Source: Somniosus microcephalus (taxonomy: Eukaryota). From it: a DNA stretch of 64,000 nt. A program made the translations under genes and the position numbers. The notes beneath the pieces are model-generated. The model made no database searches, had not been told where the DNA came from, and saw only the letters and a list, made by a program, of their open reading frames with translations. Below, one piece after another: positions 12,998 to 60,884 of this stretch; positions within the stretch are counted from its first letter, which is position 1, and every line of letters begins with the position of its first letter. The stretch is taken from assembly GCA_052327205.1 (NCBI GenBank), contig CM126217.1, forward strand, positions 38,564,001-38,628,000. The letters run 5' to 3'.

Positions 12998-13074
12998 CTA
13001 AAAATGAACCCAAAAAATGAACTGAGCTCCAGTGTTGTTAGTTAAACATGCCCAAATACTGGATTACAGTGTTC

Positions 13075-13445
13075 TAATGTATGGGAATGGGAAATCATAC
13101 AAGGAGATACTGGGACTATTTCCACTGGAACAGAAGGCTGAAGAGATTTAATAGAAGACCTTTTACACTGGTTGGGAATTGGTGATGAGGGGTGATCAAT
13201 TTAACATCGTCACTAAGGTGTGGAGAGGGGTTGGGATAAATTTCTTCATGCAGAGGGTTATTGGAGCATAGTATGTCTTGTCACAAGGAGTGCTTGAGGC
13301 AGAGCGGTTGAATCTTTTAAGGGGAAATTGGATACATTTTTGATACAGGAAAATACAGAGCTACGGGGAGAGAGCAGCGCGGTGGGTTTAACTTTGGATT
13401 GTTCTAAAATAAAGAGCTGAAACAGACACACATTTAACTCCTTCC
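13075..13445 (+). mobile_element. Old CR1 LINE 3' end
   Basis: Degenerate match to the CR1 3' region (ggactatttccactggaacagaaggctgaagagatttaatag; ttcttcatgcagagggtt). Confidence 0.6.
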
Positions 13446-13464
13446 AAGGCTGTTTTCCAACCTA

Positions 13465-13650
13465 TGTACCAGCTTAGTTCAGTTGGTAGCACACTTGCCA
13501 TGGAGTCAGAAGGTTGCGAGTTCAAGCCCTGCTCCAAGGGCAGATAATCTGGGCTGACACTTCAGTGCAGTATTAAGAGAGTGCTCCATTGTCAATGGTG
13601 CGGTCTCTTGGATGAGACGTTAAACTAAGGCTCCACCTGCCTGTTCAGGA
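13465..13650 (+). mobile_element. DeuSINE (SacSINE1-like) 5' fragment
   Basis: gttggtagcacacttgcc..gagtcagaaggttgcgagttcaagccc followed by the Deu core. Confidence 0.75.
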
Positions 13651-13879
13651 GGAGACCGCTTTAATGAGCTAAAGCTGACACTTATGTTCCATTTCCTGTC
13701 ATTGCCCTTTCAATAATACTGGATATAGTCAAGCCTGTACAAAACAGGCATTGCTAGGGACTGTATAAAAGGTGGAAGTAAATTTAAGAGAGCCACAGCA
13801 GGTAATTTAATGAGTCTTGTAAAATCATTAATTTTGAATCATTTTATCAAACATTTCTCCCACTGCTGCTTAAACATCG

Positions 13880-14700
13880 AGCTTAGTCTCTTGCACCGTG
13901 GGGCTTCCCTTTTTGCATTCCTTCCATTTCAAACAGGGCTCTATGGGATTCCCATTTGGAACATCCACGCATCTATATTTGTTGGAGGAAGAGCAGGAGG
14001 CCAGACTGCTCAGGCACTGTAGGGCATATGGCACCTGCCCGCCTGCCTATTACCCCCCCCCCCCCCCGAATGTAGAGACCCGAGTGCTCCGACCTCCAGC
14101 TGACCCAGGAGCAGTGCTTGAAGAGGTTGCGTTTCACAAAGGAAGCCATCAAATGAGTTATGGTACAACCTGAGCTACAGTCCACCTACTCCACAGGTAC
14201 ATTACCAGTGGCTGTGAAAGTCACCATCATCCTCAACATTTATGGTACAGGGTTATTCTGGGCTGCCACTGGAAACATTAGTAACATTCCTGTAAACAGA
14301 CGCATTGTTTGCTCGAGCAAGTTCCCCAAGGTCAGCAGAATAACAGGTGTTACCATTTTAGAGTGGCAGGATTTCCCAAAGTACAAGGAGTCACAGATCG
14401 CACTTGCATGGCCATATATGCTCCCCTCAATCTCATCACCTGCGTCCACTCGGTTGTGACCAGCTGCACTGCAGCATGCAAGGTTCCATCAGCCACGAGT
14501 GTCATCATAGAGCACACTATTGGAATTTTGAAAGCACACTTCAGGTGCCTGGATTGGTCCTTAGGGCCTCCGGGATGAGGCATCAGCTGCAGATCTGCCT
14601 GAAGCTGCCACACACTTCAGGATGGATGGCTGTGTTATCACTCAAAGGGCAAAGCATCATCAGGAGCTGTTTTTTTTAAGCTGCTGCAGGCATTTAAATT
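13880..14700 (+). mobile_element. PIF/Harbinger transposase (HARBI1-like) remnant
   Basis: Frame-shifted fragments TLPVAVKVTIILNIYGTG, AGFPKVQGVTDRTCMAI and IIEHTIGILKAHFRCLD are typical of Harbinger DDE transposases. Confidence 0.8.
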
Positions 14701-15282
14701 CTGTGGCAGCACATTATTTCCTCCCCTCCCTCCCACAGTGGTGCACTTCCAATCAGAGGTGGGAGCCCATCGCCACTGTTCAAACTACGCTGACCTTAGA
14801 ATCTGAGTCAGCGATGAAGTGCTGCTAACTACACTTCAGGCAATTATAGTTGTGGAGGAAACTACTGGTGGCTATGGATTAGGTATTTAGTTAAACCCAT
14901 AATTTGAAGCAGAGTACTTTCAATCCATTCATATTCAGCTAGGTCACCAAGAGTAGCAAAGGAAACAATGACCCATTTGTTTACTCTCCCAATGGCCCAC
15001 AACCGCCCCAGCAGAAGAGATGAGTAACACAATCCAATTAATCAGGTACACTGCACAGGGCCCATGAGGAACTGCAGTTAGACCAGCTCAATTATTTCAG
15101 AAGCTGGCTTTCTATAAAATTAATATATTCTCCTTCCAAACAAAATTAATATGCTAATTAGAAAACAAACTTAAAATCAATCAATATTTAGAAATGGTGT
15201 GGAGATGCCAGTGTTGGACTGGGGTGGACAAATGTAAGAAGTCACACAACACCAGGTTATAGTCCAACAGTTTTATTTGAAA

Positions 15283-15319
15283 TCACAAGCTTTCGGAGCG
15301 CTGCTCCTTCGTCAGGTGA
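15283..15319 (-). ncRNA. Minimal type I hammerhead ribozyme motif (sense to the host gene)
   Basis: TCAC-CTGACGA-A-GGAGC-AGC-GCTCC-GAAA-G-CTT-GTGA with a perfect stem II. Confidence 0.7.
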
Positions 15320-15390
15320 AGTGGAGAGATGCCTATAGACACAGATTATATAGTCAGAGAATAATCTGTGTCTATAGGCATCTCTCCACT

Positions 15391-15427
15391 TCACCTGACG
15401 AAGGAGCAGCATTCCGAAAGCTTGTGA
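15391..15427 (+). ncRNA. Minimal type I hammerhead ribozyme motif
   Basis: TCAC-CTGACGA-AGGAGCAGCATTCC-GAAA-G-CTT-GTGA: stem I TCAC/GTGA, core CUGANGA...GAAA, palindromic AAGCTT in place of stem III. Confidence 0.65.
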
Positions 15428-15909
15428 TTTCAAATAAAACTGTTGGACTATAACCTGGTGTGTGTTGTGTGACTTCTAACATTTAGAAAACGGAAGGTTT
15501 TGAGCAGTCAAGGAGTTAATATTCACTGCATGGATTTGTATATGGCAGGCGGTTTCCTGCAGCTCAGGAGAGATCTGATAACACAAAAATGTCGTGCTCA
15601 GAGGTTGTACTACACATTCCACATAATGGATTTCAAGGGAATCAAAAGCAAACAGAAAGGGAACCACTCTGGCTCCAAGCCGACAAAACCCAAGCACCTG
15701 CTGTCTCTGCTCCAACATCTACTGCAAGCAAACTACAGCCTTGCTAACTCTTTAATTAACTGAACGAGGTACTTGGCAGATCACTGCACTCAGCTCAGTT
15801 ATACTGCAGTCTTAATCACAGCCGTCATAAGACACAGTTCATTACAATGCAGTACGTAACTCCAGCCTTGCAGCAAAAATAATGACCTTTATAAATCTTG
15901 GTATTTCAA

Positions 15910-16135
15910 CAGAGGAGTGAAAGAGAGAGAGCGAGAGAGAGAAGGGAGATGGGGAGAAGAGAACGCGAATGGAGATGGGGAGAGGAGAGAGAGCAACAAG
16001 GGAGGCGGAGAGAGAAGAGAGAAGGAGAAAGGAGGCAGGTAGAAGGCAGAGAGAGACCAGTAAAGGGGGGGTGGGGAGGGGACAGAAAGAGTGAGTGAGA
16101 AGGGAGGGAGGGAGGGATGGATGAAGAGGAAAAAA
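15910..16135. repeat. Purine-rich (GA/GGA) low-complexity tract
   Basis: About 220 nt, almost entirely A/G on the + strand. Confidence 0.85.
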
Positions 16136-17619
16136 CCCAAAACATGCACAATTATCATATTTGAATTATTAAGGAAGATCTGCAGTAGACAACATTTTCA
16201 ATCTCTTGCTCCCATTAATAGCACCTTTGTATTGCACAGAACAATTGAAAATAAAGTGGGTTCAGATCCAGATCAAGCCAATAGGATGGAAGCCTATTTT
16301 CTTTGTCAGCTGTACATGAAATGTGTTTGAGCAACCTCAACCTAGCACCTAAAGGATTCCCGTCGACAGCATAAAAGTCACCATAGTTCAGCAGCAATTG
16401 ACACTAAATACCTATATAACCATAAAAGGTTTATTCATTTGCACAAATAATGATCACAGTCAATTGAATTATCCTCCAGAGGAATCAAAGAGTCTAAATA
16501 ACTGAGTAACCAAGTTGCAAGCCTGCAACATAACCATATGATATAAAAGATTTCATCGATTGCCACAGTTTCAGTGATTAGTGTCTTTTGCTCAAATTAA
16601 GCCTGATTTTGGTTTCAAGCTTCTTGGAAGGCCAAGTGTGCATGTAATGTCATAATTATTGATTACCACACAAGATTAAACAAATGGAGAGGAGGTACTT
16701 TTTAAGTTCAAATGCAACATGTGCAAGAAACAAAAAAATTATCTTGCTGACATTACATGCCTGATGAGTGATTCTATTTAGAAAAAATGGAAAGCCTTAC
16801 CTTCTGGATTCACTAAAACAGGTCCTGTTTATATTTGAGAAGTACCATCATTTCATTCACTGGTTGGGATCAGTGCCGGCCTGATTTGACAGAAAGTTGT
16901 TCTGCCAATAACACCAGAAGTTGAATAATGCTCAGGCAGTGGGGAAGGGAGGGGAAGAAAAAGCCAGCAACAGCACATGGATGGTCACGGTGTTGGGTGG
17001 CAGGATGGCACGCAGGCATTTCTTAAATGAATGAAACAGATTGATGTTTATGGCCTGCAAACCTAGAGTCAGATAATACTAGCAGCTTGATCTTAATATG
17101 CCATGGTAGCTTTTACACTATAGTGAGCAGTACATTGGATTTTAAACAATGTATACACAAATATCCATCACACTCATCTACACATGCAACACTCTAGATC
17201 TAGTCACAAGGTAACAAGGATTTGCACAATTGTGAATATTGAGGGAAAGTAATTATCAGGCAGTGTTTTTGAGCCAAACTTTTTTTTTTAAAGGAAGGCA
17301 CACAACACAACACAGACTAGTGGGGGTGATGTCAACCTACCCAAAATGCACTGCAGGAAGGAGAATCCCCCTGGTGGTGAGAAAGTGCAACGTTACAAGT
17401 TGGACAAGGTCACAACACAACAGAACATGCTTCAGAACAACTGTCAAAGGGGCTCCTTGGCAAAGTATTGGCATTTATTTTTGAAAAGACCCATTGCCAT
17501 GACAGAACTAAACATGAGAGGGGGATAAAAAGTGGTGTGCTTGGGGAAGCACTCTCACATTTCATGAATATCTTTTTTTTTTTTTTTTTTTTTTTTTTAA
17601 GTCCACTCTCTCACCAAGT

Positions 17620-17910
17620 TATCTCCCCATTTCCCCCCTCCTCTCCTGAAGGTAACAATTAATGCTGTCATACAGGCATCAGCTCTCCATCTCACCAAAT
17701 GGCCATTCTATATTTGTGATTCTTAGCAGTATTCAACTGAGCCTAGGGGAGTAAAGAAACGTTAGAACTGAACTAATCCTATCTTCAACCAGGGTCCACA
17801 CACGTGCATCATTTCCAGCAGAGGTTACTAGATAGCAATCAGGAGCAGGAATTGCAGTCGATTTTTCTTTTACTTAGCCTGGGGACAATAAGGACAATTG
17901 TAGCATCCTA
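17620..17910 (-). mobile_element. Old interspersed repeat (SINE-like), family also seen at ~20300-20610, ~35540-35680 and ~38040-38520
   Basis: Shared motifs (ccagcagaggttactagatag..aggagcaggaa; cctagcc..caattgtag); tRNA-like head on the minus strand in the longer copies; family name not recognised. Confidence 0.5.
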
Positions 17911-17934
17911 ACCGGTGCCCTGGAAACAGCAATG

Positions 17935-19120
17935 AAAAGTTTTTGATAAGGTCCCGCATAAGAGATTAGCGTGTAAAGTTAAGGCACATGGGATTGGAGG
18001 CAAGGTATTGACTTGGATAGAGAACTGGTTGGCAGACAGAAAGCAAAGAGTTGGAATAAACGGGTCTTTTTCCGAGTGGCAGGCAGTGGCTAGTGGAGTA
18101 CTGCAGAGACCGGTCCTTGGACCCCAGCTATTCACAATATATATTAATGATCTAGACAAGGGAACTAGATGTAATATCTCCAAATTTGCAGACGACACAA
18201 AGCTGGGTGGGCATGTGTGCTGTGAGGAGGATGCAGAGAAACTCCAGGATGATTTGGACAGGTTGGGTGATTGGGCAGAAGCTTGGCAGATGCAATAGAA
18301 TGTGGATAAATGCAAGGTTATCCACTTTGGTGTCAAAAACAGGAAGGCAGATTATCTGAATGGCAATAGATTGGGAGAAGGTAAAGTGCAATGAGACCTG
18401 GGTGTCCTTGTGCACCAGTCGCTGAAGGTAAGCATGCAGGTGCAGCAGGCAGTTAAGAAGGCAAATGGTATGTTGGCCTTCGTAGCAAGAGGGTTCGAGT
18501 ACAGGAACAAGGATGTCTTGCTGCAGTTGTACAGGGCCTTGGTGAGACCACATCTGGAGTATTGTGTGCAGTTTTGGTCACCTTATCTGAGGAAGGATGT
18601 TCTTGCCATGGAGGGAGTTCAGCGAAGATTCAGCAGGCTGATACCTGGGATGGCAGGAATGATGTACGAGGAGAGATTGGGTCGATTGGGCTTATACTCG
18701 CTGGAGTTTAGAAGAATGAGAGGGGATCTCATTGAAACTTATAAAATTCTGACAGGACTGGACTGGGCAGACTAGATGCAGGAAGGATGTTCCCGATGGC
18801 GGGGGAGTCCAGAACCAGGGGTCACAGTCTAAGGATAAGGATTTAGGACAGAAATGAGGAGGAATTTCTTCACCCAGAGAGTGGTGAACCTGTGGAATTC
18901 TCTAGCACAGAAGGCAGTAGAGGCCAATTCATTAAATATATTCAAGAAGGAGTTGGATATATTTCTTAAGGCTAAAGGGATCAAGGGATATGGGGAGAAG
19001 GCAGGGACAGGGTACTGAATTTGGATGATCAGCCATGATCGCGTTGAATGGTGGAGCAGGCTCGAGGGGCCGAATGGCCTACTCCTGCTCCTATCTTCTA
19101 TGTTTCTATGTTTCCATGTT
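17935..19120 (+). mobile_element. CR1 (HER1-like) LINE, 5'-truncated
   Basis: RT motifs [36 protein letters not shown] and LYRALVRPHLEYCVQFWSP with in-frame stops; 3' UTR and tctatgtt tail. Confidence 0.95.
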
Positions 19121-19597
19121 CCAGAGTACAACAGTCAATGTCACAGATATAGGCATTTATTCTTCTATTTAATTTATGCATGTGAAGTGGGATAATTAAA
19201 ATACAGGCATCCATTTATGAATCCAATCCTCTAGTTGTAGTTTCTATGGAATGGCGAGTGTACAGGTAAGACCGCTAATGGATAAAACTGTAACTATTTT
19301 GGAACGGGCTGGAATAAAAGGTATGGACCACTTCATCCCAGCGCACATATATTGAATTGCAAGTGACTAAGCTTCTGGCCAATCATCTGACAGAGGTGCC
19401 AAAGAACATTCCGAGGATGAATCTCTCACGTTTGCTGCTCCTTTTGGGGAACTGCCCACCTTCATTCAGTTCCTCCTCACCTCCATTCAGTTCCTCCTCA
19501 CTGACTAAGCTGAGACCAGGCACTCAACAGGTGCATGAACCCACATTCTGCCATTGGGTGGCAATATGCTGCAAGCCATTTCAAGGTAGATTTTCCA

Positions 19598-19700
19598 AAA
19601 TAACAACAGAATACGCTGGAAAAACTCAGCAGGCCAGGCAACATCCGTGGAGAGAGAGATAGAGTCAACGTTTCAGGTCGAAACCCTTCTTCTGAACCTT
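19598..19700 (-). mobile_element. Penelope pLTR fragment (family B-like)
   Basis: Similar to the arm at 23901-24000; degenerate hammerhead-like core CAGAAGA...GAAACGTT. Confidence 0.7.
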
Positions 19701-19925
19701 TGCAACTTGCCCCCCACCATGGCATAAAACTAGCATTGCAGATTGCCCGCCCATCATTGGTTTCAAGGACAATGAAAATCAGGTGGTTTCTATAATGGGC
19801 ATCAGCCAGTTTTACACCCAGGTGACAAGTTAAAAATCTACCCCATTGTTACTTGATCAAACAAAGAAATCTAGTCTAAGGGGCGGTAACACAGCTAAAA
19901 GTACGGAGAGATCATTAGATTTCTA

Positions 19926-20291
<366 letters not shown>

Positions 20292-23900: not shown

Positions 23901-24207
23901 TAACAACAGAAAATGCTGGAAAAACTCAGCAAGTCAGGCAACATCCATGGAGAGAAATTTGAGTTGACGTTTCGGGTTTGACCCTTCTTCAAAACTGGAG
24001 AGAAAAGGAACTAGATCGAAGGCAGGGCTGCGATCGGACAAAAGCCCTGCCTTCGATCTAGTTCCTTTTCTCTCCAGTTTTGAAGAAGGGTCAAACCCGA
24101 AACGTCAACTCAAATTTCTCTCCATGGATGTTGCCTGACTTGCTGAGTTTTTCCAGCATTTTCTGTTGTTATTTCGGATTTCCAACATCTGCAGTATTTT
24201 GCTATCG
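23901..24207. mobile_element. Penelope-derived inverted-repeat insertion (family B)
   Basis: 129-bp arms 23901-24029 and 24043-24171, 13-nt loop, 36-nt tail; 13-bp TSD TACCTTTCCTGAG (23888-23900 and 24208-24220). Confidence 0.9.
24076..24110 (+). ncRNA. Minimal hammerhead-like motif with U3 variant (mirror copy on the minus strand at 23962-23996)
   Basis: AGTT-TTGAAGA-AGGGTCAAACCC-GAAA-C-GTC-AACT; GUC cleavage triplet, stem I AGTT/AACT; C3 replaced by U. Confidence 0.55.
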
Positions 24208-25263
24208 TACCTTTCCTGAGGTTCGGTGCCCAGAACTGAATACAGTATTCCAGGTGGGATCTGACCATGACTCTGTACACCCCTCTCACACTCCTGGACA
24301 GGATACAAGAACAAGCTTGTAGTCCAATAAAATGTGTCTCTATCACCGTCAGCCTCCAATCTCTCTTTCTGCATTGCAATGTTCCTTGTCTTTTTCTACT
24401 TTATGGCTATGGATAGTCATCATTGCTCCTCTGAACTTTGGTAGGTAGATAGTTTGATATACCTACGGTCTATCTTCCAAGCTCCAAATACATATTCTTA
24501 TGCTCTTCTGCCTTGCTACATCCCTACTGTGCTGAAATTAGGACCCCTCAGTCTTTTACTTACCCAAGACCTTAAAACTGTAGAACTCCTTACCTTTTTA
24601 ATTCTTTCCTTCTTCCTGCAATGTTCAGGCATTTAAAACTTAAGCTTGGCATTACCCCATTACTACTTCCTTCCCCCCCACTCCCCCACCCCACCCTTGG
24701 TGGTGTGATACGCAATGGGCCTTAGCCCTACACCTTAGTTTCTTGCAGTTCTTAAGTCAAAACCACAGCAACAGGGAAAGCCCTAACTGGCCAGTGAGAG
24801 TTGCCAGTGGTCCTCACACTTCAGTACACACTGCCCTGGACTCTGGCATCTTAAAATCAGGGTCTTTACGTAATGGAGAAAGGGAAGGGGTAAAACAAAG
24901 AAAAATGGGCAGAAACAAATAGAAAAAGGAGAAACTGAACACTAGAAAATTTAAATATTTTCTAACAAAATAGGTATCATAAAATCACAGAAGTGCCTAA
25001 TCATGGGATGTGGCACAAGCTTGAATATTTAGATGCCTCATCCATTGCACTCTAATAATATGGAGATCCCCGCACAAAGAATTGAGAGCTTTTGTAACAT
25101 TAAGTTGGCAACAAGCTTCTCTTTAGCCTGCCAATGGGGCATCATGCCCAATTTTTAAAGGGGCCTTCACAGGAGGAGGCAGCAGCATTAGTTTGTAGCC
25201 AACACATGAACTAATAAGCTCATTGCTCATATTTTTATTCAACCTTTCTGTCTGAACCACAAC

Positions 25264-25496
25264 TGTTAAGTCTGTGTTCTAGTTATTGTTAATAAGAATC
25301 ACTGCACACAGACCACAAGAATAAATTCAACAGGTCTTTACTAGTCGAAGGTCAGGCTAAACTGCCCAATAAATCATTACACAGCACTTATATACCGGTG
25401 TGGTCACCACCGGTATTACAGTATACAGCAGCCAAGATAAAGTAGTGCATCTCTTAAAATAGTTCTCTTAAAGGTGGAATGGTTACATACACCACA
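25264..25496 (-). repeat. 3' LTR (233 bp)
   Basis: Near-identical to 30256-30491; preceded on the minus strand by the PPT AAAAAGGGAGGAT. Confidence 0.96.
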
Positions 25497-25573
25497 ATCC
25501 TCCCTTTTTAGCTTAACAGTATATATTCCCCCATTTAACATAACATATATACACAACTTCATGTAAAAACAGT

Positions 25574-27336
25574 TCACAGATTCAGTCTCTGAGGAGGCCT
25601 CCTGATCCGAGACGGATAACGCCTTTCAGGGGTCTCTGGTTCTCGTTGCTGGGGTGACTCATCTAGTTGATCCCCTATGGATAGGACATCATCATCAGGT
25701 ATATTCACTTCTGAGGTAAATGCTTCAGGTTCACTAACTTCCTCCACGGTTGTCTCTGTCGTAACCATGGGCTCGACCCCACCAGTTGGTCAGCATGACG
25801 TCGCATTACGTTTTCACCAACATCTACCATGTACATCAGGGGTCCTTGTCTGGCCCGAATTGTTCCAGATTGCCATTTCTCGTTTTTATAGTCCCTGGCT
25901 AACACCGGTTGTCCTATTTCAAAACTCCGAGTGGGCTTGTTATTGATATGCTGGAACTGTTTGTTTTCGACTTCCCTCCGCACATTTGGTTTTAACAAGT
26001 CCAACCTGGACCGCAACCTCCTGTTATAGAACATCATGGCAGGACTTTGGTTTGTTGTTGCATGGGTGGCGTTTCGATATGCCAGTAGGAAATTGTCCAC
26101 CTTGTGTTGCAGTGGAATCTGATCTTCGCTCATGGCCTTTATTGCCTTTTTGAACGTCTGTACAAACCTCTCGGCCAGCCCATTCGTAGCTGGATGATAT
26201 GGGGCAGAGGTATAATGTTTCACCCCATTCTTCTTCAGGAATTTCTGGAATTCCTCTGACACGAACTGTGGTCCGTTGTCTGAACATATTTGCTCTGGCA
26301 ATCCATTTCTTGCAAATATCGTTCTTAGCACCGCGATCGTCTTCTCCGAGGTAGTGGTAGTCATTTTAATCACTTCTGGCCATTTAGAATGTGCGTCCAC
26401 CACAATTAAAAACATGGAATCCATGAATGGACCAGCAAAGTCAATATGTACACGTTGCCATGGGGTTGAAGGCCATTCCCATGGATGCAGCGGTGCAATT
26501 GGAGGTGCATTTTGGACTTTTTGGCACCCTGAGCAGCTTTTCGTCAGATCCTCTATCTGTTGGTCGATACCCGGCCACCACACATAAGCCCTAGCAAGGC
26601 TTTTCATCTTGACTCCCCCCAGATGACCTTCATGTAGTTCTTTTAGAACTCTCTCTCTTAACTTAGGAGGGATAATCACCCTTGTTCCATACATCAATGT
26701 TCCCTGACAGATGGACAGCTGTTCTCGTCTTGCTGAGAATGCCGGTAACAGTGGATCACCATGGGCTGGCCATCCCTTTACTGTCAATTCGTAGACCCGG
26801 GACAGTGTCGGGTCATTCCTAGTCTCCCTTTCAATATTTGCATTGGTGACAGGTAAACATTCGATGATGGTCGAGTGAAATAACTCCACCGGGTCAACCG
26901 TCGGTGCCTCCTCCTCAGTAGGTAGTGGCAGGCGCGACAGCCCATCAGCATTACCATGCTGCTTTGTACCTTTGAATTCTATCTGATATTGATGTGCCCC
27001 TAGGAAAAGGGACCATCTCTGGAGCCTCTGTGCTGTCATCACCGAAACACCCTTCTTAGGGTTAAAAATGGATACCAACGGCTGGTGGTCTGTCAGCAGT
27101 GTAAACTTCTGGCCCTGCAGGTAATGATTAAACTTCTTTACTCCCCACACAAGGCTGAGAGCCTCCCTATCTATCTGAGCATAGTTGCGCTCAGCGGAGG
27201 TCAATGATCTGGATGCAAATGCGACTGGCCTTTCCAAGCCATTTGGCAACTTGTGTGAGAGTACTGCTCCAATACCATAAGGAGAAGCATCACAAGCTAA
27301 ACGAATAGGTAGCGTTGGGTTGAAGTGAGCCAACAC
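25574..27336 (-). CDS. Gypsy RNase H-integrase (second part; further frameshift near 25780)
   Basis: LACDASPYGIGAVL, NYAQIDREAL, HEGH...CSGC, HIDFAGP, SDNGPQF, NGLAERF; the C-terminal RRYPSRIRRPPQRLNL is in another frame. Confidence 0.92.
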
Positions 27337-27377
27337 TTCCTGAGGTGATCAATGCCTTGCTTTTGCGAAAGGCCTTC

Positions 27378-29513
27378 TTAGTCCTCGCTCCACTTCCATG
27401 GTACTTCTTTCTGCAAAAGAGCGTTCAGCGGGTGCAGCACCGTGGATAGATTTGGCAGAAACTTATGGTAATAGTTAATCAACCCTAGGAACGACCTCAA
27501 CTGGGATACATTTTCCGGAGCGGGAGCCTTCACAACAGCTTCGATTTTGTCAGGTGACTTGTGCAGCCCCTCCTGGTCAATGACATGACCACAGTACGAG
27601 ATCCGTTTCTGAAAGAACTCACATTTCTGGCGATTAACTCGAAGTCCATATTCCTTCAATCTGGTGAGCACCAGTTTCAAATTTGCAAGGTGTTCCTCAT
27701 CGTCATCTCCTGTAATCAGGATATCGTCCAAGTAACATTGAGTGCTTGGAATTCCCTGTAATACCTGCTCCATGGCCCTCTGCCAAATTGCTGGAGCCGA
27801 AGCCACTCCAAAAACCAGTCTATTATATCGATACAAGCCTCTGTGCGTGTTGATTGTGAGATACTGGCGCGACTCTTCCTCAACTTCCATCTGTAAGTAC
27901 GCTTGCGCCAGGTCTATCTTGGTGAAGTGTTTCCCGCCAGACAATGAAGCAAAGATATCCTCAATCCGTGGAAGCGGATATTGCACCGTGTGAAGCACCG
28001 GATTAACCGTGATCTTGAAGTCTCCACAGATGCGGACCTTCCCCGGTTCCCCTGGCTTGTTACTCGATGAACGCTTCATGATGGGAACAATGGGCATGGC
28101 CCACTCACTCCAGTCCACCTTAGACAGTACTCCTGAACGTTCTAGCCCTTCCAGCTCAGCTTCCACAGCAGGTCGTATCGCATAAGGTACCGGTCTGGCT
28201 TTGAAAAATTTTGGGTTTGCATGTTCTGCAATCTTGATTTTTGCCTTAATTCCTCTCAGTGTTCCCAGTCCCTGTTGGAACACCTCTTTAGCATCATCCA
28301 ATATTCTGGACAATCGTTCAGGTTTGACATCTTTTTTTCCGGAATCTACCGTTATTGCTTTTAGGGAGTGCCAGTCCATGTTTATTTTCCTGATCCACTC
28401 CTGTCCCAGAAGTGGTGGACCTCCCTCAGGTAGTACATATAAGTCCATTCCTTGGTGTTCTTTGCCCTTGTGTACCACCTTGACTTTTATCTTTCCGATG
28501 GGGTATACTCTTTGCCCCGTGTATGTCTGCAATACTATCTCCGTATCCCGTAGGGGAATATGTGTGAATAACCTTTTGTAATCTTGCTTATTCATGACCG
28601 TCAACGCCAATCCGGTGTCCAATTCCATCTTCACTTGGACTCCTGCTATCTGAAGTGTGACCCAGATAGTTTGTAGGTCAGCTTCCTTACTCACATTGTG
28701 AATTCTCAGACTACCCAGTTCCTTGCTGTTGGAGTCTGAATCCGAATTCTGTTCATCCGAACTCTTCTCAGCCACCTTATGCACCTTTCTGCACTTTTCC
28801 TGCGGTGACTTTTTGTTGCTGGTCTTCTTTCCTGACCGGCATACTTTAGCTATGTGACCAAGCTTGCCACATTTTCTACATTCCTGATTTTTAAACCAGC
28901 ATTGGTTCTGATCGTGTGTTGTCTTTCCACAACGATAACATTTCGCTGTACCCAAAGCCATTTGATCTACGCTGAGTACCGCTGCCTTCAGCTGCATTTC
29001 CGCAGTGCCTCTCGCTGCGGCTTCGTGCGATGCTGCAATAGTGACAGCCTTATCAAGTGTAAGATCATTCTCTTCAAGCAGCCGCTTTTGTGTTCCTTCT
29101 TTCGACAATCCACACATGAATTTGTCTCTCAGTGCCTCTGTCAGTCTTTCCCCAAACTGACAGTATTTCGCTAGCTTACGCAGTTCAATTAAATACTCCG
29201 CGTTGCTTTCCTCTTTCAGTTGCATTCTCGCATAAAATTTAAATCGTTCTGCTAACATCAGCGGTGTGGGATTCAAATGATTTCTCAGGACAGCAACAAT
29301 ATTAGCGAAAGCCTGATCCGCCGGTTTAGCTGGTGATAGAAGATGCTTCAATAGCCCGTATGTCTTCGCACCCATTGAGTTTAGTAAGGTTAGTGCTTTA
29401 TCTTCATCTGATATTTTATTTGCCTTACAATAAATCTCTATGCGTTCTACATACGTGGCCCAATCTTCAACATCGGCATCGAAATCGTTGATGTTACCAC
29501 GCTTAGGCATCCT
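27378..29513 (-). CDS. Gypsy gag-protease-RT (first part of an interrupted polyprotein)
   Basis: CYRCGKTTHDQNQC and CRKCGKLGHIAKVC knuckles; protease LDTG; RT RICGDFK, KIDLAQAY and YLDDILI. Confidence 0.92.
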   Translation of the reverse strand, partial: RMPKRGNINDFDADVEDWATYVERIEIYCKANKISDEDKALTLLNSMGAKTYGLLKHLLSPAKPADQAFANIVAVLRNHLNPTPLMLAERFKFYARMQLKEESNAEYLIELRKLAKYCQFGERLTEALRDKFMCGLSKEGTQKRLLEENDLTLDKAVTIAASHEAAARGTAEMQLKAAVLSVDQMALGTAKCYRCGKTTHDQNQCWFKNQECRKCGKLGHIAKVCRSGKKTSNKKSPQEKCRKVHKVAEKSSDEQNSDSDSNSKELGSLRIHNVSKEADLQTIWVTLQIAGVQVKMELDTGLALTVMNKQDYKRLFTHIPLRDTEIVLQTYTGQRVYPIGKIKVKVVHKGKEHQGMDLYVLPEGGPPLLGQEWIRKINMDWHSLKAITVDSGKKDVKPERLSRILDDAKEVFQQGLGTLRGIKAKIKIAEHANPKFFKARPVPYAIRPAVEAELEGLERSGVLSKVDWSEWAMPIVPIMKRSSSNKPGEPGKVRICGDFKITVNPVLHTVQYPLPRIEDIFASLSGGKHFTKIDLAQAYLQMEVEEESRQYLTINTHRGLYRYNRLVFGVASAPAIWQRAMEQVLQGIPSTQCYLDDILITGDDDEEHLANLKLVLTRLKEYGLRVNRQKCEFFQKRISYCGHVIDQEGLHKSPDKIEAVVKAPAPENVSQLRSFLGLINYYHKFLPNLSTVLHPLNALLQKEVPWKWSED

Positions 29514-30255
29514 TGCAATCTTCTTGAGAAACAAAAAGAAATTTTTCTTTTTTTTTTTTTTCCAAAATGGCGGTTTCCCGCGCTTGTCTTCTTCCCCCGC
29601 CTACGAAAATGGCGGCTTCCCGCGTTTGCCTTTCTCCCCCGCTGGCTGTAATGGTGATTGCCGTATTGCTGCGTTCGCCCTCCCCAGCGGTTCTCAAATC
29701 GTGCCTCCCAGCCCCTCTTGCAGTCCGGTCCTTTCCACCGGCTGCGGCTGAGTTCTCCGCGGTTTTTAAAAAAATTATTTTTATTTTCTCCCGCGCCTCG
29801 CGGCCTCGGTAGCTGCCCGGCCTTTTTCCCCGGTCGTGGTCGAGCTCTCTCGACGCTGTTGCGTCTCCCAGCCCGCTTGCAGCCCGGTCTTTTACACCGG
29901 CTGCGTTTGCATTCACCGCGGCTCCCGTGCCTTACGCTGCCCCAGACTTCTGTCCGGCTCTTTTCCCCAGCCGTGGTCGAGTTCTCCGCCCTTATATCCT
30001 TCGTTTTTCCCTCCCCTACTTCACAGCCAACGTGGCCGACTTGCTGCTCGTCGCTGATCGGCTTACCCACCACCTGTGGTAGAAGGGATGATCACTGCCT
30101 GTTGCTGATGGAAGGCTTCGTGTCAGGATTCTTCCTTGCTCTTCAGACCCGAGTCTTTTCTCGGCAGGATGATGAGGGCGGATGCCTCTTCTCGACGCCC
30201 GTTAAACTGCCTTGGATATATCTCTGCCGCAGGGTAAGATCGTCATCGTCGCCAC

Positions 30256-30491
30256 TGTTAAGTCTGTGTGTTCTAGTTATTGTTAATAAGAATCACTGCA
30301 CACAGACCACAAGAATAAATTCAACAGGTCTTTACTAGTCGAAGGTCAGGCTGAACTGCCCAATAAATCATTACACAGCACTTATATACCGGTGTGGTCA
30401 CCACCGGTATTACAGTATACAGCAGCCAAGATAAAGTAGTGCATCTCTTAAAATAGTTCTCTTAAAAGGTGGAATGGTTACATACACCACA
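30256..30491 (-). repeat. 5' LTR (236 bp)
   Basis: Followed by the PBS TGGCGACGATGACG (30241-30254); contains TATATAA and an AGTAAA poly(A)-like signal. Confidence 0.96.
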
Positions 30492-30524
30492 ACAACCATC
30501 TCTGCTGCCACACCACCACCAACT

Positions 30525-39302: not shown

Positions 39303-39620
39303 AGGGTTGGAGGGGAGAGTATCTGTGAGGTGGGTCTGGGAGAGTCAGTGCCAGTGTGTAGGGGGTTAGAGGGGAGAGCATCTCGGAGGTGGGTCTGGGG
39401 GGTTCAGTGCCAGTGTGTAGGGGGTTGGAGGGGAAGAGTATCTCGGAGGTGGGTCTGGGGGAGTTCAGTGCCAGTGTGTAGGGAGTTGGAGGGGAGAGTA
39501 TCTCTGACGTGGGTCTGGGGGGGGGGGGGGGGGTTCAGTGCCAGTATGTAGGGGGTTGGAGGGGAGAGTATCTCGGAGGTGGGTCTGGGGGAGTCAGAGT
39601 GCCGGTGTGTAGGGGGTTGG
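39303..39620. repeat. G-rich minisatellite, ~59-bp unit, about 5 copies
   Basis: Unit gtgggtctgggggagtcagtgccagtgtgtagggggttggaggggagagtatctcggag. Confidence 0.9.
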
Positions 39621-42111
39621 ATGTGGGAGGGTGAAAGTTGAGGACACTTGGAGAAAGGGGTGCCTGTTGAAAATTCAAATATCACTTTGTTTTTCCCCTT
39701 TTAACGATTGTAAATCTATTCATTGTGAAGTATAAAAGTCCTTAAAATGAACAAGAAGGCACCTTTTTTAAAATTCTAATGTTTCGGGGGTGCATGCCCC
39801 CAGATACCCTACAAATACAATCACCAAATTTGTGGCATCAATATTTGGATTTCCCCCATCGTGTGGTGACTTATTTGAGGAAAAAGCACGGAGAGAAGGG
39901 CTTGGTATATCCTGCAGCTCAAATGACAACGCCTGTACAACCTACTTGTTTCCACGTACCAAGGGCTTATAATGGTGCCATTTCTGAGGCTTTCACTTTT
40001 TGGGGACAACAGCTTTTCTGAAGATGTTGGGACAGCTTTTATCGTTTCACAACAAAGACGCAAGAGCAGGTTACACATACACCCTCTCAGCCAAGGTGCA
40101 AGGAGTCTGGACAAGGGAAAAGGAAGGAAGAGAAGGTCTGTCCAGTAATGAAAAGACATAACACTCGCCGAATCTGGGCTCCATCATTTAGAGGTTCGGG
40201 AAATTCCCCGACACTTTCACTTGTAATCTCTGACGTTCCTCGTGAAGCCACTTGGCAGCAAACCCTCTTGTATGTTTTGCTTCGTAACTTACTCGCTTCC
40301 TGCCATCAGTGCTGTGTAATCACCGACCAGCAACAGCCAGACAGCATTCTGCCCGGACCTTTCACTCATCATCACCTGGGGACTGGTAAGTACATCACTT
40401 CTACCCATTGCTTCAATGACCTGCTTGAGATCTGAGGGTTTTATCCATGTGGGGAGATTACAGTCACTAAACAGCTACATGGCACAGCTGTCAGAGTCAA
40501 ACAGCCTGAATCCCATCATTTCACAGCCAGATTCCATTCGAGATAACAGTGAGAGCGTGGTCCCTTGTAAAATAGAGAAGATTCACTGAACAGACTGCCA
40601 CGAGGGCCTTATTAAACAAATTCAAATGTTTGAATATTTTCTTTCTTGCAAGAAAATAAAAAGACATTGAACATTTATCGGGCTGCACAGCCCCCATTTG
40701 TACATGGTTGTGTGGCATTTCTGATTTGGTTACTATCCATTGCTTGAACTGTAGTCTTCAATAATTCACAATTGACAGCGGAGGTTCCAACCTGCCGATT
40801 CAGGAGCTATGAAGGCATATTCTCGTTACCATGGAAACAAACATGCCCTCTGGAACTAACAAACTTCAGCCATACAGCAGAGGCCATGGTTCAAAAGGTT
40901 GCAGATTGTGCTGAATGTCAGACCATCAATCAGAGTAAGCTGCTCAATAGAAGGCAGCCAATCTTTTAAAAAAAACATTTACAGTTCAGAATAGTAACTC
41001 GCATCCAATTGATGGCAGCAGAAATATAAAATGTGTATTTTAAAATCATTCCATCCTTCTCAGTCTGCCATCTTCTCTTACCTCCAATGCAGTCTTCCTT
41101 CAGCTGGGGGCAGGGCAGCTGGCCAGTTGGAGCCAACTGCCCCCTCTCCAAACCAAACATACTCCACACAAACTGACAGGAGTGGTGAGTGGTGGTGGTG
41201 GTGGAAATGAAGAAAAGCCTCAAAAGTAATTGTTCTGCCCAAGATACTGGGATAGATCATTGACAACACTCAGATTAATTCTAAATTGCAGAATGTGAAC
41301 ACTGAATACAATGTATTCACGATAAGAGATCAAATTCACAATCAATTATTCCTCCATGGCTTTATTCAGATATTTCTCCTGTTCTCAGCGTCAAAGACCA
41401 TTCCCGTAAGTGAGTCCTCACTTCCCATCACCAGAGTGTGACTTTGTGCACACAATATCTGCTTACATTGTGTTGTCCAGGGTCAAATGAAACTTTTGTT
41501 ACTAAAATACACACTGAATTGATACGAGCCCTCTAGTCTTCAGTGCTGGTTCTTCGACTATCTGATCACGTGATTCGGGTTAAAAGTTAAATCGTAGAAT
41601 TCGTCAATTTAATTTAATTGCAGAACCTTCTACCTCCGCTGCTATAAAACATGCAACATTTTGCTAACCCTCTTCGCAATAGAGGATCAGCGTCTAACTT
41701 AACTTGTATGTGAGGCTTCATCCACCAACAGAGTCTTCAGCATCTATCTCGAAAGGACAAACCTGTGACATCCTAGAAACAATTGGAACTGTTGGTGATT
41801 GCTTACAGTCACCTGCCTCAACAAAAGGACAGACCCTGTGGTATTTCCAAACACACGTGAAGAATGTGGATTATCCCCTGACCAGATAATGTAAGCCAAC
41901 AGTAAGCAAAATTTAAGGTGACTAGTCACATCTCAAATAGGCAATACTGTACAAATATAGAGACTTCATCTTTGCATTGTGACAAAACCCCTATCTGTCA
42001 CAGGTAGGATAAGTCACATGACATCAGATCACTTCTGTTGGGAAACCACAACAGCCAATCCATTCAAGCTTATGTTTGTGCCGGTTAACTTGTTACTTTA
42101 TCCAAGGAGAC

Positions 42112-46059: not shown

Positions 46060-47693
46060 TTACCAATAGCTTGTGTAACTAACTTCTGCCAACAGAACTC
46101 CAAACTCTCGTCTCCCCCTGACTGAAATGCTGTTCACACAATACAGTACACAGTTCTAGCCCCATGGCCAAACCTTTTTAATGAAGTAGACCAAACTAAT
46201 TGAAAAGAGCATAGACAACTGGGTTCTTTCAGCAGTGGTAGGCAGGGATTCTATTGACTTTTCCCTCCCTATTTGAAATACTAAAGATACCTTTATCAGA
46301 ACATAGTATTGTCTAACAACAGCTCCGAACACTGGAAGACATTGCCATGCTAGGGAGAGTTACTAGCTTACCGTTCCATTATTGTAATAATTTGGCTTTT
46401 CCCTACGGTAAGAGGAACACTTGTAAATTAAATTTCATAATGCACTTCCTAAAACATGTTGCTACTAAAATCAAGTTTGGTGAAATGCTGACTCAATGTG
46501 CAACCCACAGTTTCAGTTCACTTTCAGTAACTGGAGGGCTGCAGCAAGATGGTTTTACAAACAGCTACTACTATTAGTGTGCAACATGCAAGAAAAGGCC
46601 AAACCTTTGTGACTCATGTAAACCTGTAACAGGAAGCCAGAATTTTTTGGATCACAACAGGTATTAAAAGGCACTCAGTTTGATGTTGACCAAAATTGCA
46701 GCAGTGATGATTTATGGCTGCCTGAAGTTTTCACCGAGTATGAAGGCAATTGTTGCCTTATAAAAGCACTTTCGCTGAAAGGTCTATGCCAATACAGGAT
46801 GGCCTTGGTTATCCCATACTATCACATCGCCCCAATATAACACAAAAACTGCATTCATGATTTGCAGATGTGGCATTTGCTGCAATACAGATTAACCAGG
46901 AAGTGTTCAAAAATATTTTTAGGACTTTATTGTTCCAATAAATCGAGCCTATTCAAACCATAAAGGGCATTAACTCAGAGCTGGGTTTAAATTGCAAAAC
47001 CTGGTACTTGGTATTAATGGGCTCTGATTTTGCATATTTGAGTAGATTTGCGTGTTGATAGACAGGACAGTGGTGATGTGGGGAAGAGTCCGTTAGTGTG
47101 TCAAGCAGATTCAAGTACTTAAAAACACATACTATATTAAAGCTGGTTTATTTCTTGCAACAACAAAAAAATCAGAAAACAATTGATTGTTATAACCCCA
47201 CTGCTGTCTCCAGTTATCAGACAATACAAGTTATCTAAACCTACAGTGGGCAAGGCACAATAGAAGTTAGGCGGCTGAGGAGAGCAATACGAGCTGGCAA
47301 CTTCTCCACAAGCACAATCCAGAGTAATCTGAAGTTGGAGCAGGTAGAACAGTATTTTAATGACTATATGTGGTTACAAGGGTACAAACGAGTCAATTTT
47401 GAGAGAAAAAGAAATATTCTCAAATATTTATATTCAGCAGTGTTTGTGTGCATTGAGATTAGGATTGCCAGTACTAAGAATGGAACAATTCCCTAGTGTC
47501 GGCTTGGACAATTCCCGTGTCAGGTGTTGTATGTACATACAAGGGGAAAACATACTCTACACTCATCTAATCCCAGTTTTTGCAGACTGCCTCTTACTGT
47601 ACCACTAACTTTCCATTTTTCACACCACCCATCCAGTGGCCTAAAATTGACAAATGACCAGATTTCTGCTATCGAGTAATCCCACTACAAGTG

Positions 47694-47743
47694 TAAGAAG
47701 TCACACAACACCAGGTTATAGTCCAACAGTTTTATTTGAAATC
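47694..47743. mobile_element. 50-bp Penelope family A fragment
   Basis: Matches 15235-15284; flanked by acaagtg direct repeats (47687-47693 and 47744-47750). Confidence 0.8.
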
Positions 47744-48282
47744 ACAAGTGGGTTGAAACTTCTAACAAAGCCAGGAGGGGAGAGGAAAGAGGAGAGAGCG
47801 ACGAGAGAATAATGTACATCCCTTCTATTTGAACCTTCCTCCAAAATGAAGTTATTCTAACTCTGTGTCCCCACGTCCTGCAGAAAAAGTTTCAATTGGC
47901 TGCAGAGTAATGCAAAACCTACTCTACAATGAATTTGCATAACCCAAGAACCTTCCATCATTTTGTACAAGAGTTCGTGCTGCCAGCAGCAACTGACTGA
48001 AAATAAAAACAATGTAATAGAAAATGTCCAGATCTACAATTTTATGGAAACTGTAAACTCCAACTTCAATAAACGTTAGATTTTTACTTCACTAGTGTTC
48101 ATTACACCATTTGGCTTTACTTTGTATAGAACGGTTTTATGTAGGTTCTCCTACGCAATACACATCATTGTAAATTAGACCATTGTGGGATTCTACTAAC
48201 CCACAACGCGCTTAAGTCCTTAGCAAATTCTGGCCAGCTCTGGGACAGGCAGAATGAAAAGCTAAGCCACTTTAATATATAA

Positions 48283-49017: not shown

Positions 49018-49357
49018 TAATATGTGCAGGTTGTTGGGGGGGGCGGGGGGATGGTTGGGGAACGCAGAGAAATGAAGTACTGTAACCTAAACACCCAGCA
49101 TCACCAATTACTGTTCCATCGATCAGTTGAAGCTTTCCTTCACAGCACGCCAAGCGTTTTTGTACACAATAAAATTTGGGGTCAGTTGGGAAAATTTTAG
49201 GACTTTTAACTGCTTCTGCTGATTGTTCCTCCTCCAACCACTGAGTGGAGGCAACAAGTCTCTCTGCCCATCAGCCACAAATCTCCAATCAGCAGTTAAA
49301 AGAACAGCGACCTAGGTCCCAGGAATCTTAAACTTTCTCATCTCTCATTTGGTATAG

Positions 49358-50395
49358 AGTGACAGGCAGTGACTAGTGGGGTACCGCAGGGATCGGTGCT
49401 AGGACCCCAGCTATTCACAATATATATTAATGATCTAGACGAGGGAACTAGATGTACTATTTCCAAGTTTGCAGACAACACAAATCTGGGTGGGCGTGTG
49501 TGTGCTGTGAGGAGGATGCCGAGAAACTCCAGTATGATTTGGACAGGTTGGGTGATTGGGCAGATGTATGGCAGATGCAGTATAATGTGGATAAATGCAA
49601 GGTTATCCACTTTAGTGGCAAAAACAGGAAGGCAGATTATCTGAACGGCAATAGATTGAACGGCAATAGATTGAGCGAAGTGGAAGTGCAACGAGACCTG
49701 GGTGTCCTTGTGCACCAGTCGCTGAAGGTAAGCATGCAGGTGCAGCAGGCGGTTAAGAAGGCAAATGGTATGTTGGCCTTTGTAGCGAGAGGATTCGAGT
49801 ACAGGAACAAGGATGTCTTGCTGCAGTTGTACAGGGCCTTGGTGAGACCACACCTTGAGTATTGTGTGCAGTTTTGGTCGCCTTATCTGAGGAAGGATGT
49901 TCTTGCCATGGAGGGAGTGCAGCGAAGGTTCACCAGGCTGATACCTGGGATGGCAGGAATGACGTATGAGGAGAGATTGGGTCGATTGGGCTTATACTCG
50001 CTGGAGTTTAGAAGGATGAGAGGGGATCTCATTGAAACTTATAAAATTCTAACAGGACTAGACAGACTAGATGCAGGAAGGATGTTCCAGATGGCGGGGG
50101 AGTCCAGAGCCAGGGGTCACAGTCTAAAGATAAGGGGTAAGCCATTTAGGACAGAGATGAGGAGGTGGTGAACCTGTGAAATTCTCTACCACAGAAGGCA
50201 GTTGAGGCCAATTCATTAAATATATTCAAGAAGGAGTTAGATATATTTCTTAAGGCTAAAGGGATCAAGGGATATGAGGAGAAGGCAGGGACAGGATACT
50301 GAGTTTGGATGATCAGCCATGATCTCATTGAATGGCGGAGCAGGCTCGAGGGGCCGAATGGCCTACTCCTGCTCCTATCTTCTATGTTTCTATGT
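49358..50395 (+). mobile_element. CR1 (HER1-like) LINE, 5'-truncated; same subfamily as 17935-19120
   Basis: [46 protein letters not shown]; internal 15-bp tandem duplication aacggcaatagattg; same 3' tail. Confidence 0.95.
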
Positions 50396-51725
50396 GCATC
50401 TTGTAGTTAGATTGATGTACTTGTTGAATTGGTGCAAAGAGCCTCTTAAAGACACTTGTTCTCTTCCTATACCATTTAGAGTCTGTGTTGAGCTTTGTCC
50501 CCTTTCCCAACATTATCTTTGTATTGTGTACTGGGAAAATCCAATCTCAAAAACAAGTCAAATATATCTGAACTTAAAAATTAATAATGCATTAACTGCA
50601 ATGCAAATGACATACACTGGTTTAAAACTGAATATTAGTGCTGAAATAATAAACAAAAGTCATAAATAATCATTATATGAGCGGAACATGTCAGAGCATT
50701 ATAGTGATGGAACAGGTTGTAGAGAGGGCATTTTATTAGGTTCTCTATTAATAAGGGAGTCATAAACAAATGTCAGAGGTCAGAGCAATGGAGGAATGAT
50801 GACCTGTCCCTCATGAATGAGTGAAATATGATCTCTATAAATCTGCAATGCTTCATATTCCCGTGATGGCCTCACTCATGGGATTTTTAAGCATAAATCA
50901 TGTTATGTTGCTTTAACACAACGAAACATCTCTTTTGGAAACAAGTTGCTCTTCAAAAAATAATTAAACATGCACATGGGTCAAAATTTGCAACAGGTGG
51001 GCACTGAACCAAGCAGCAATAAAAAAATCACCCATCATAAAGTTCAGAAAAAACACAAATTAAAAAAGGGCAGTCAGCAACCAATTAAAAAAAATTTGAA
51101 TCAATGAAATTGCTTCATTTTTCTTGTGCAGTTGGTTGGAGCTGCCAGTTGGACTTCTGCCAGTTGAAAAGTTATAAGTAAAAGTAACACTTACAACAAA
51201 AGGCATTAACCGATTCTGCATAAAATGTAGATTCTCTCTCAGGGTTTCCTGTGTAGTAAATCCATGAAAAAAAATCTTGGACCGTCATACTCCTGTGTCA
51301 TGATCTTGAAGCTCAACTTGGAGTACTTGGCTACGGCTTGAATTATTGGGTGGATCTACTCCCAACCGATTCCTGTAAATCCTTGGTTCCTCTTAGTTGA
51401 CCACAGACCATATCAATTGTAACAAGTCTAGCCAGTGCCTTCTCTCTTCATTTTGGCTCCATAGTGCAGCTATACCTTTCCCTTCTGAGTCAAATTAACA
51501 TTCACAAAGCATGCTGGCATTTGTTATTTGTAAGCCCCATCCTCTTGCAGTGACACTGAGGTAACTAAATTTTTTTGTATGAAAATGTCAAGTCAATGTA
51601 TATCATGACCTTTTGGATTTTATGTGACGTATGTGATGCACATCAGAGTTAACTCCCAGAAATTGTTAAATGATTGTCCAGAAGATTCACCATTCACCAA
51701 GTATACTAGGATTTAGTGTTAGTAA

Positions 51726-52086
51726 TAACAACAGAAAATGCTGGAAAAACTCAGCAAGTCAGGCAACATCCGTGGAGAGAAATTTGAGTTGACGTTTCGG
51801 GTTTGACCCTTCTTCAAAACTGGAGAGAAAAGGAACTAGATCGAAGGCAGGGCTGCGATCGGACAAAAGAATAAAAGAACCAAAAGAAGTAAAAGAGATT
51901 AGAAGCTAGACGAGATGGTAATAGGCTGTGATTAGGTGTAAAGTGTACTGGCAGGGCAAAAGATAGCTGCCAGGTGTGAGAGAGAAACAAAAGGAAAGGG
52001 GGGGGGGGCGGAAAGGAAAGGAGTGGAAAAATATAAGTGAAAATGAACATTTCGGATTTCCAACATCTGCAGTATTTTGCTATCGT
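51726..52086. mobile_element. Penelope family B insertion, inverted body plus 36-nt tail
   Basis: Near-identical to 23901-24042, then continues into more internal sequence; tail tttcggatttcc...gctatcg in the opposite orientation; 14-bp TSD tttagtgttagtaa (51712-51725 and 52087-52100). Confidence 0.88.
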
Positions 52087-52579
52087 TTTAGTGTTAGTAA
52101 CCCCATCTCCTCACCCTACTTGTGAAATCAGTTTTTTTTGGACTGCCCTGATGGAAGAAAGACAGCAAACCATTTTGGGGTCTTGAAGGTTAAAAATTGT
52201 ATAAAAATATTAGGACTTTAAAAAGGTAAAAATAAATGATTTTGATATAAAACATGAAAGCAGAGTAAAGCATTAACTTTGTGAGCTAATTTAACAGAGA
52301 AAAAATATATTCATTTTGAGGGGGTATTTATTCATCCAATGTACATCTATTAAAAGCAGCCATGTATTTATTTACTGTTCCTCCATACTCCATCTCAAGG
52401 CAAAGCATGACTCCCAATTTTTACTGAGCAATTCTTTCATTAAGAAATGCAATTTAGGTTACTATATTCAAGGTGGTTCTGCCAAATTTCAAAGTGGAAT
52501 CAATAATCTTTGTAATATGCTCTAAAATAGTACTTGCCTTATTCGTCTGTAAGGAATGTAAAAGAAATGATTATTCATG

Positions 52580-55480: not shown

Positions 55481-55530
55481 TGTAAGAAGTCACACAACAC
55501 CCCAGTCCAACACCAGCATCTCCACACCAC
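55481..55530. mobile_element. 50-bp Penelope family A mini-insertion with internal inversion
   Basis: 20 nt in one orientation plus a 30-nt tail in the other; 10-bp TSD gaccatgtaa (55471-55480 and 55531-55540). Confidence 0.85.
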
Positions 55531-60702: not shown

Positions 60703-60884
60703 GTGCATGAAGACCCCTGCTCTAAACAGTGAGTGCATGAAGACCCCTGCTCTAAACAGAGAGTGCATGAAGACCCCTGCTCTAAACAGTGAGTGCATGA
60801 AGACCCCTGCTCTAAACAGAGAGTGCATGAAGACCCCTGCTCTAAACAGAGAGTGCATGAAGACCCCTGCTCTAAACAGTGAGT
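60703..60884. repeat. 30-bp tandem repeat, 6 copies
   Basis: gtgcatgaagacccctgctctaaacagWga; the single variable base reads T,A,T,A,A,T. Confidence 0.97.

Follow-up and report, generated by a model that had tools for sequence, protein, structure and literature searches.

Host gene and layout of the insert

The window analysed here, the whole 64-kb stretch of DNA, contains six exon matches to DUF2045 (PF09741), all on the minus strand; we take KIAA0930 to be the name of this DUF2045 gene. Between the exon ending at about 20063 and a feature starting at about 12997, presumably also a DUF2045/KIAA0930 exon, these matches predict an intron, and the insert lies within it, as the preliminary description of this DNA had proposed. 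The features are listed below in window positions, with negative numbers counting from the end of the tail.

12998-20062, minus strand: host intron of the DUF2045/KIAA0930 gene, splice dinucleotides as read from the sequence
15183-15194: left target-site duplication (TSD), exact over 9 nt (15186-15194) and 12 nt long if one mismatch is allowed
15196-15229, minus strand: 34-nt tail of a Penelope-like element (PLE), on the left arm only; in full-length copies the tail ends just before the ATG of the ORF (junction of copy L127)
15230-15365, minus strand: left arm, PLE pLTR from -170 to -35, in KIAA0930 sense, 98.8% identical to the L127 reference
15283-15319, minus strand: minimal type I hammerhead, host-sense, with stem I UCAC/GUGA, core CUGACGA at 15315-15309, an extra A and a 5-bp stem II; its 3' part has GAAA at 15294-15291, the palindrome AAGCUU and a predicted cut between 15287 and 15286
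15318-15324, minus strand: Initiator-like (Inr-like) CCACTTC, where 5' ends of the family pile up; putative transcription start
15346-15352, minus strand: TATATAA box, some 30 nt upstream of the Inr-like site; only the left arm has it complete
15350-15360: 11-nt loop
15361-15365: 5-nt microhomology at the inversion junction, common to both arms (arm overlap -5)
15361-15484, plus strand: right arm, pLTR from -154 to -35, lacking a tail and carrying a 4-nt insertion
15391-15427, plus strand: minimal type I hammerhead, host-antisense, with weakened stem II and a predicted cut between 15423 and 15424
15478-15489: right TSD, 9 nt exact at 15481-15489, overlapping the element end

The two arms (15230-15349 and 15361-15484) are identical in 117 of 124 alignment columns and differ by one 4-nt insertion and three substitutions. 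Their inner 101 nt are 98% complementary, 11 nt separate them, and the predicted RNA fold of the hairpin has an energy of -217 kcal/mol (z = -26) that was matched by 0 of 200 shuffles. The near-perfect inverted repeat and the loop had thus been described correctly, but the arms measure about 120 bp and not 113 bp; likewise, the insert placed earlier at 15195 to 15477 is real but extends to 15484, and 15196-15229 forms a tail that is unpaired and present on one side only. A contig of organism C, with flanks about 97% identical, joins 15182 straight to 15478 and represents the empty site, and the insert is present in organism B; the insertion is therefore young and its borders are confirmed. The inversion junction has a single match in the whole genome with up to one mismatch allowed, and this uniqueness rules out spreading of the fold-back as a unit. 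No direct repeat of the hairpin unit, a criterion for non-LTR retrozymes, was found nearby, the pair being inverted.

Other repeats in the window are an LTR retrotransposon in a KIAA0930 intron (25262-30492, with 239-bp direct repeats that are 98% identical and long gag/pol-like frames on the minus strand), two 1-kb LINE 3' fragments that are 90% identical (18074-19111 and 49357-50395), and tandem repeats at 39304-39629 and 60703-60884.

Hammerhead motifs in the two arms

Each arm reads UCAC-CUGACGA-A-stem II-GAAA-GC-UU-GUGA, on the minus strand from 15319 to 15283 and on the plus strand from 15391 to 15427, and AAGCTT is found at 15287-15292 and 15418-15423, in agreement with the motif and the palindrome described before. 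The core CUGANGA, GAAA and UH of the minimal type I hammerhead are present in both arms. On the plus strand two substitutions reduce stem II to 4 pairs, one of them G-U, at -5.7 kcal/mol versus -10.8 for the minus-strand copy. The hammerhead descriptor gave 153 matches in 530 kb (the loci plus the window) and 0 in the reversed sequence. The Rfam scan that had been suggested as a check did not recover the motif: at E<=10, 14000-17000 gave 7 hits, none of them to a hammerhead family, and the miRNA-type matches remained below threshold (MIR3627, 41 bits versus 64 needed).

Covariation of the stems, whose lack was to have refuted the proposal, was observed. Between two PLE families 7 of 11 pairs are changed on both sides, comprising all four of stem I, two of stem II and the palindromic 15.2-16.2, with an unchanged core that was itself part of the search pattern; 96.7% of alignment cells are paired versus 12-47% in slid controls, the set being 14 hand-picked rows that amount to one contrast of two families. 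Because the stems covary between the two families, the ribozyme design is, as far as sequence can tell, genuine. Within the family of the insert, the variable hammerhead positions are N7 and CpG sites. A search pattern with a 14-17 nt spacer was discarded: its matches were limited to 11 indel variants within the same family.

According to the available text of PMC4209133, the minimal type I hammerheads of metazoan PLEs resemble those of the insert in the extra nucleotide between 9 and 10.1, the G10.1-C11.1 pair, a 4-bp helix I, a palindromic 15.2-16.2 without a loop, and location in the pLTR. Schistosoma is reported there to have paired motifs on opposite strands, separated by 100-700 bp (Cervera and De la Pena 2014, PMC4209133), and its helix II has 7-8 bp in contrast to the 5 bp in the window's hammerhead. 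Sharks are not among the genomes named in that text.

The Penelope-like family

The PLE origin proposed for the hairpin is borne out, as the arm corresponds to the terminal repeat of a retroelement of 3,145 nt, whose long copies encode a reverse transcriptase (RT). In the full-length copy L126 the RT domain PF00078 was matched at E 1e-7, over the cut-off. The region after it has VVYL..YIGET..CCHH-type motifs, read by eye, which we take to be endonuclease (GIY-YIG, CCHH) motifs and for which Pfam gave no match. Copy L127, with an inverted pLTR, a partial tandem and a tail ending at the ATG, has the textbook PLE form; partial tandem pLTRs with an inverted 5'-truncated copy are seen in L127, L128 and 42 of 69 position-ordered insertions. 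L126 and L127 share flanks and insertion, lie 1.2 Mb apart and differ by an extra tandem unit in one of them, and represent a segmental duplicate.

Genome-wide, a 27-mer of the arm has 5,856 exact matches (control 0), the core pattern 22,587 (control 9), and the core of the second family 48,017 versus 468 in the control. RNA reads of run X21 over the family ORF come mostly from one strand, and the family is therefore transcribed.

Several more PLE-type pieces lie in the window. The same intron holds a solo host-sense copy of the second family with a changed core (19594-19697, U4 to A), and the next intron upstream in the KIAA0930 gene a second PLE-type fold-back of the other hammerhead family (23901-24208) with one tail, a TSD of about 11-13 nt and a C3-to-U change in the core of each arm. 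An insertion of the latter subfamily at 51724-52093 (99% to 23901-24044) has one long arm, a second arm made up of the tail only, and a TSD-like flanking repeat. Two short fragments belong to the family of the insert, one beginning 3 nt before the cut site (47687-47748) and one in which an antisense piece lacking the tail abuts a sense tail (55479-55529).

Canonical EN+ PLE insertions have an inverted 5'-truncated pLTR, a one-sided tail of 30-40 bp and a TSD of 8-12 bp, as far as described in the available parts of PMC3846280, PMC8557442 and PMC2377424, and the insert shares with them the head-to-head inversion and the optional tail at one end. In contrast to such insertions, both arms in the window are too short for any ORF. 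In the Poseidon element of Anolis (PAc) the ORF begins inside the hammerhead, according to the portions of PMC11167929 at hand, whereas the ORF of the present family starts 92 nt past the cut site, its ATG directly following the tail. Non-LTR retrozymes, as presented in parts of PMC7229834 and bioRxiv 2026.07.22.740005, are likewise small, non-coding and related to PLEs, and carry type I hammerheads; they are direct tandem repeats able to dimerise in cis, whereas the window copy is an inverted pair with a unique junction and no spread. Published work thus already describes inverted pLTRs, one-sided tails and opposed minimal hammerheads, and the copy is ordinary, one among thousands of family members. 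We regard the insert, with a probability of about 85%, as a young, non-coding, 5'-truncated head-to-head PLE insertion whose hammerheads are pLTR passengers, predicted to be inactive here.

Census of fold-backs and their formation

The first 100 matches of one 27-mer on contig 1 gave 70 insertions, whose 70 sequences were all examined; 43 were fold-backs, and dropping L127, which has flanks in common with L126, left 42 of 69. This sample covers the first 73 Mb of one chromosome and is defined by one subfamily-biased 27-mer. Nested insertions or deletions interrupted six arm ends, whose positions were assigned manually. Head-to-head fold-backs make up 61% of the position-ordered insertions (tail-to-tail, 0) and are the commonest product of this PLE family; four loci scored as solo additionally contain an inverted piece that lacks a 3' end. 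Of the 42 fold-backs, 40 have a tail at one end and none at the other, and 36 have a TSD of at least 9 nt (mostly 11-15, one mismatch allowed). Among the 40, it is the tail arm that extends further 5' in 18 and the tail-less arm in 19, and 3 are ties; no count of which arm is longer was found in the available text of PMC3846280, PMC8557442 and PMC2377424. Two loci with different flanks, L070 and L075, have the same inversion junction at the boundary of stem I and the core, which suggests recurrent microhomology.

Non-CpG variants common to both arms amount to 4.7 per kb, versus 0.7 between insertions, and 0 of 300 re-pairings reached as high a value. By this measure both arms of a family fold-back come from one source element; one RNA and two sister RNAs would look the same in these variants, to which gene conversion between arms could add.

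The origin of the inverted repeats and tails of PLEs is described as unresolved in the part of PMC8557442 available. We infer that two-ended synthesis followed by microhomology joining is the simplest model for the family fold-backs, on the basis of the census counts and of the PLE protein of Anolis, which in vitro nicks and extends both strands from two sites bounding the tail (PMC11167929, in part); the two adjacent RT starts and the extension of both strands would be features common to PAc and the present family. At this locus the protein of the element would have made a staggered cut of about 12 nt, and from each DNA end a separate cDNA would have been primed on sense RNA from a single source element, one starting at the tail end and the other 34 nt inward. 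Both cDNAs would have stopped, after about 170 and 120 nt, and then been joined via the 5-nt microhomology.

The strongest competing explanation, which we nevertheless consider unlikely, is a snap-back, in which a single cDNA folded back at the 5-nt microhomology and then served as its own template. The window copy agrees well with it: the tail arm (-170 to -1) spans the whole of the tail-less arm (-154 to -35), a loop of 11 nt with a 5-nt microhomology makes a good hairpin primer, and the arms have 3 non-CpG variants in common. Self-priming was proposed in PMC3846280, and such junctions were read by Arkhipova (2013) as self-priming on an antisense template, in the text available. A snap-back copy must lie inside its template, however, which is impossible for the 19 of 40 family fold-backs whose tail-less arm extends beyond the tail arm, and snap-back as a general route is therefore excluded. 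It also offers no reason for the stop at -35 in 40 of 42 fold-backs. Taken alone, the window copy fits either two-ended synthesis or snap-back.

Arm ends and the putative transcription start

The 5' ends of the arms are not spread evenly: 20 of 111 fall at -130 to -121, at the Inr-like motif 30 nt below TATATAA, compared with 14 ends over the upstream 120 nt and 11 over the downstream 37 nt (p = 3e-13 versus uniform). This pile-up would reflect run-off of cDNA at a transcription start, the alternative being release at the 5' edge of the ribozyme. Since the arms in the window extend past the putative start, their template was likely a read-through RNA. TATA and Inr-like motifs are also present in the pLTR of Adineta Pen2a, whereas the Drosophila promoter is reported as TATA-less, according to the available text of PMC3846280, PMC8557442 and PMC2377424.

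Among the RNA rows listed, no read starts mark the putative transcription start, where both strands rise, and no read ends pile up at the cut site, although these libraries may not show cleavage. Arm 5' ends at the cut site were also considered as a sign of in vivo cleavage and rejected, only 1 of 111 arms ending within 2 nt of it. An absence of RNA ends at the hammerhead cut site is likewise reported for PAc, in the part of PMC11167929 available.

A>G changes and probable editing of family copies

A pair of family members connects the fold-back structure with RNA. L180 (contig 26, about 16.756 Mb) is an unedited fold-back and the parent of L179 (contig 13, about 21.7327-21.7334 Mb), a 753-nt retrocopy with a LINE-like 3' end and short repeats. 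Relative to L180, 14 of 46 A are changed to G in L179 inside the paired part versus 3 of 163 outside (p = 4e-8), and the changes lie on one strand, across both arms, with the hammerhead GAAA included. Because they concentrate in the paired part, they support duplex formation by fold-back hairpins of the family on RNA, and ADAR editing is the likely agent.

Three more A>G-rich copies have 32 of 53, 15 of 25 and 11 of 25 A changed relative to the reference. The A>G-rich arms (L172:1361-1567, L173:1474-1571 and L176:1498-1592) have 44-60% of sense-strand A changed to G, few of them after G. By preceding base, 6 of 31 A are changed after G versus 50 of 66 after A or T, and ADAR disfavours A after G relative to A after A or T. 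The position-ordered census excludes A>G-rich copies through its search pattern.

The genomic sequence of the window copy has no hyper-editing, and no reads on the unique intron flanks were found in the RNA runs X21 and X22, both carrying the same species label (24-31% of each run scanned). Run X22 has strand-skewed A>G at 15257 and 15314, which may come from single loci. A loose end rich in A>G, represented by 60 reads of X22, was rejected as RNA editing, as it matches the genomic copy L172, and a forced search for antisense A>G patterns gave no matches.

Ribozyme locking and host tolerance

The preliminary description had proposed that the host pre-mRNA makes the antisense arm first, that the sense ribozyme is thereby locked in a duplex, and that this may explain why the host tolerates the insert. 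Locking itself is supported by computation, the predicted pair probability of stems I and II being 0.00 in the full insert versus 0.96-0.98 in a lone arm. In the KIAA0930 pre-mRNA the arms would form a duplex of 120 bp, incompatible with the ribozyme fold and probably a substrate of ADAR, which would be removed together with the intron. The antisense arm does come first in this pre-mRNA, but this is nothing specific to the host: in a head-to-head pair either strand presents the antisense core before the sense core, and the direction of KIAA0930 is therefore irrelevant.

A lone minimal hammerhead showed no cleavage in vitro and dimers cleaved weakly (PMC4209133), and the Anolis PLE ribozyme required the protein of the element and was dispensable for insertion in vitro (PMC11167929), both sources as available in part; there is therefore probably nothing to lock, and the predicted locking is likely redundant. 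A mechanism of tolerance appears unneeded, and the insert would persist as neutral DNA.

A fuller form of the tolerance proposal holds that minimal hammerheads cut host pre-mRNA, with the help of protein or of dimers in trans, and that solo sense copies are purged while fold-backs survive via locking. Besides the predicted locking and the edited parent-daughter pair, which indicates that family hairpins form on RNA, it can draw on the KIAA0930 gene, where there is no solo host-sense copy with an intact core (the core at 19594-19697 is changed), one gene providing no statistics. According to the available text of bioRxiv 2026.07.22.740005, tandem hammerhead retrozymes are depleted from Xenopus introns, and for this reason selection against active intronic ribozymes may exist. 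Against the proposal stand the place of CUU among the slowest cleavage triplets, the weak or absent cleavage of minimal hammerheads, the antisense-first order in both directions, the prevalence of fold-backs among insertions whatever their place, and the absence of CUU from the fast triplets named in the part of PMC3138052 available; we consider it very improbable, and locking is not supported as the explanation of tolerance. Still less credible is exaptation of the insert as an intronic small-RNA precursor, an editing inducer or an internal promoter making unlocked ribozyme RNA, for although TATATAA and the Inr-like motif are intact on the host-sense arm and stems I and II are predicted to form in RNA starting at the latter (0.96-0.98), organism C lacks the insert in flanks about 97% identical, the Rfam miRNA matches are under their thresholds, and thousands of equivalent copies exist.

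Conclusions

As a combined account, to which we assign roughly even odds, the fold-backs would record PLE insertion itself: both ends of one staggered cut prime on the RNA of one source at two starts, giving one tail, either arm longer and a head-to-head arrangement, and many cDNAs run off at the transcription start three bases before the ribozyme. The resulting hairpin in a host transcript would be hyper-edited by ADAR through GAAA and could be written back to the germline by another retroelement.

The window copy itself matters little, being one of thousands. The family counts discriminate two-ended synthesis from snap-back, and the edited pair of L180 and L179 provides direct genomic evidence of a fold-back RNA duplex and of heritable RNA edits.
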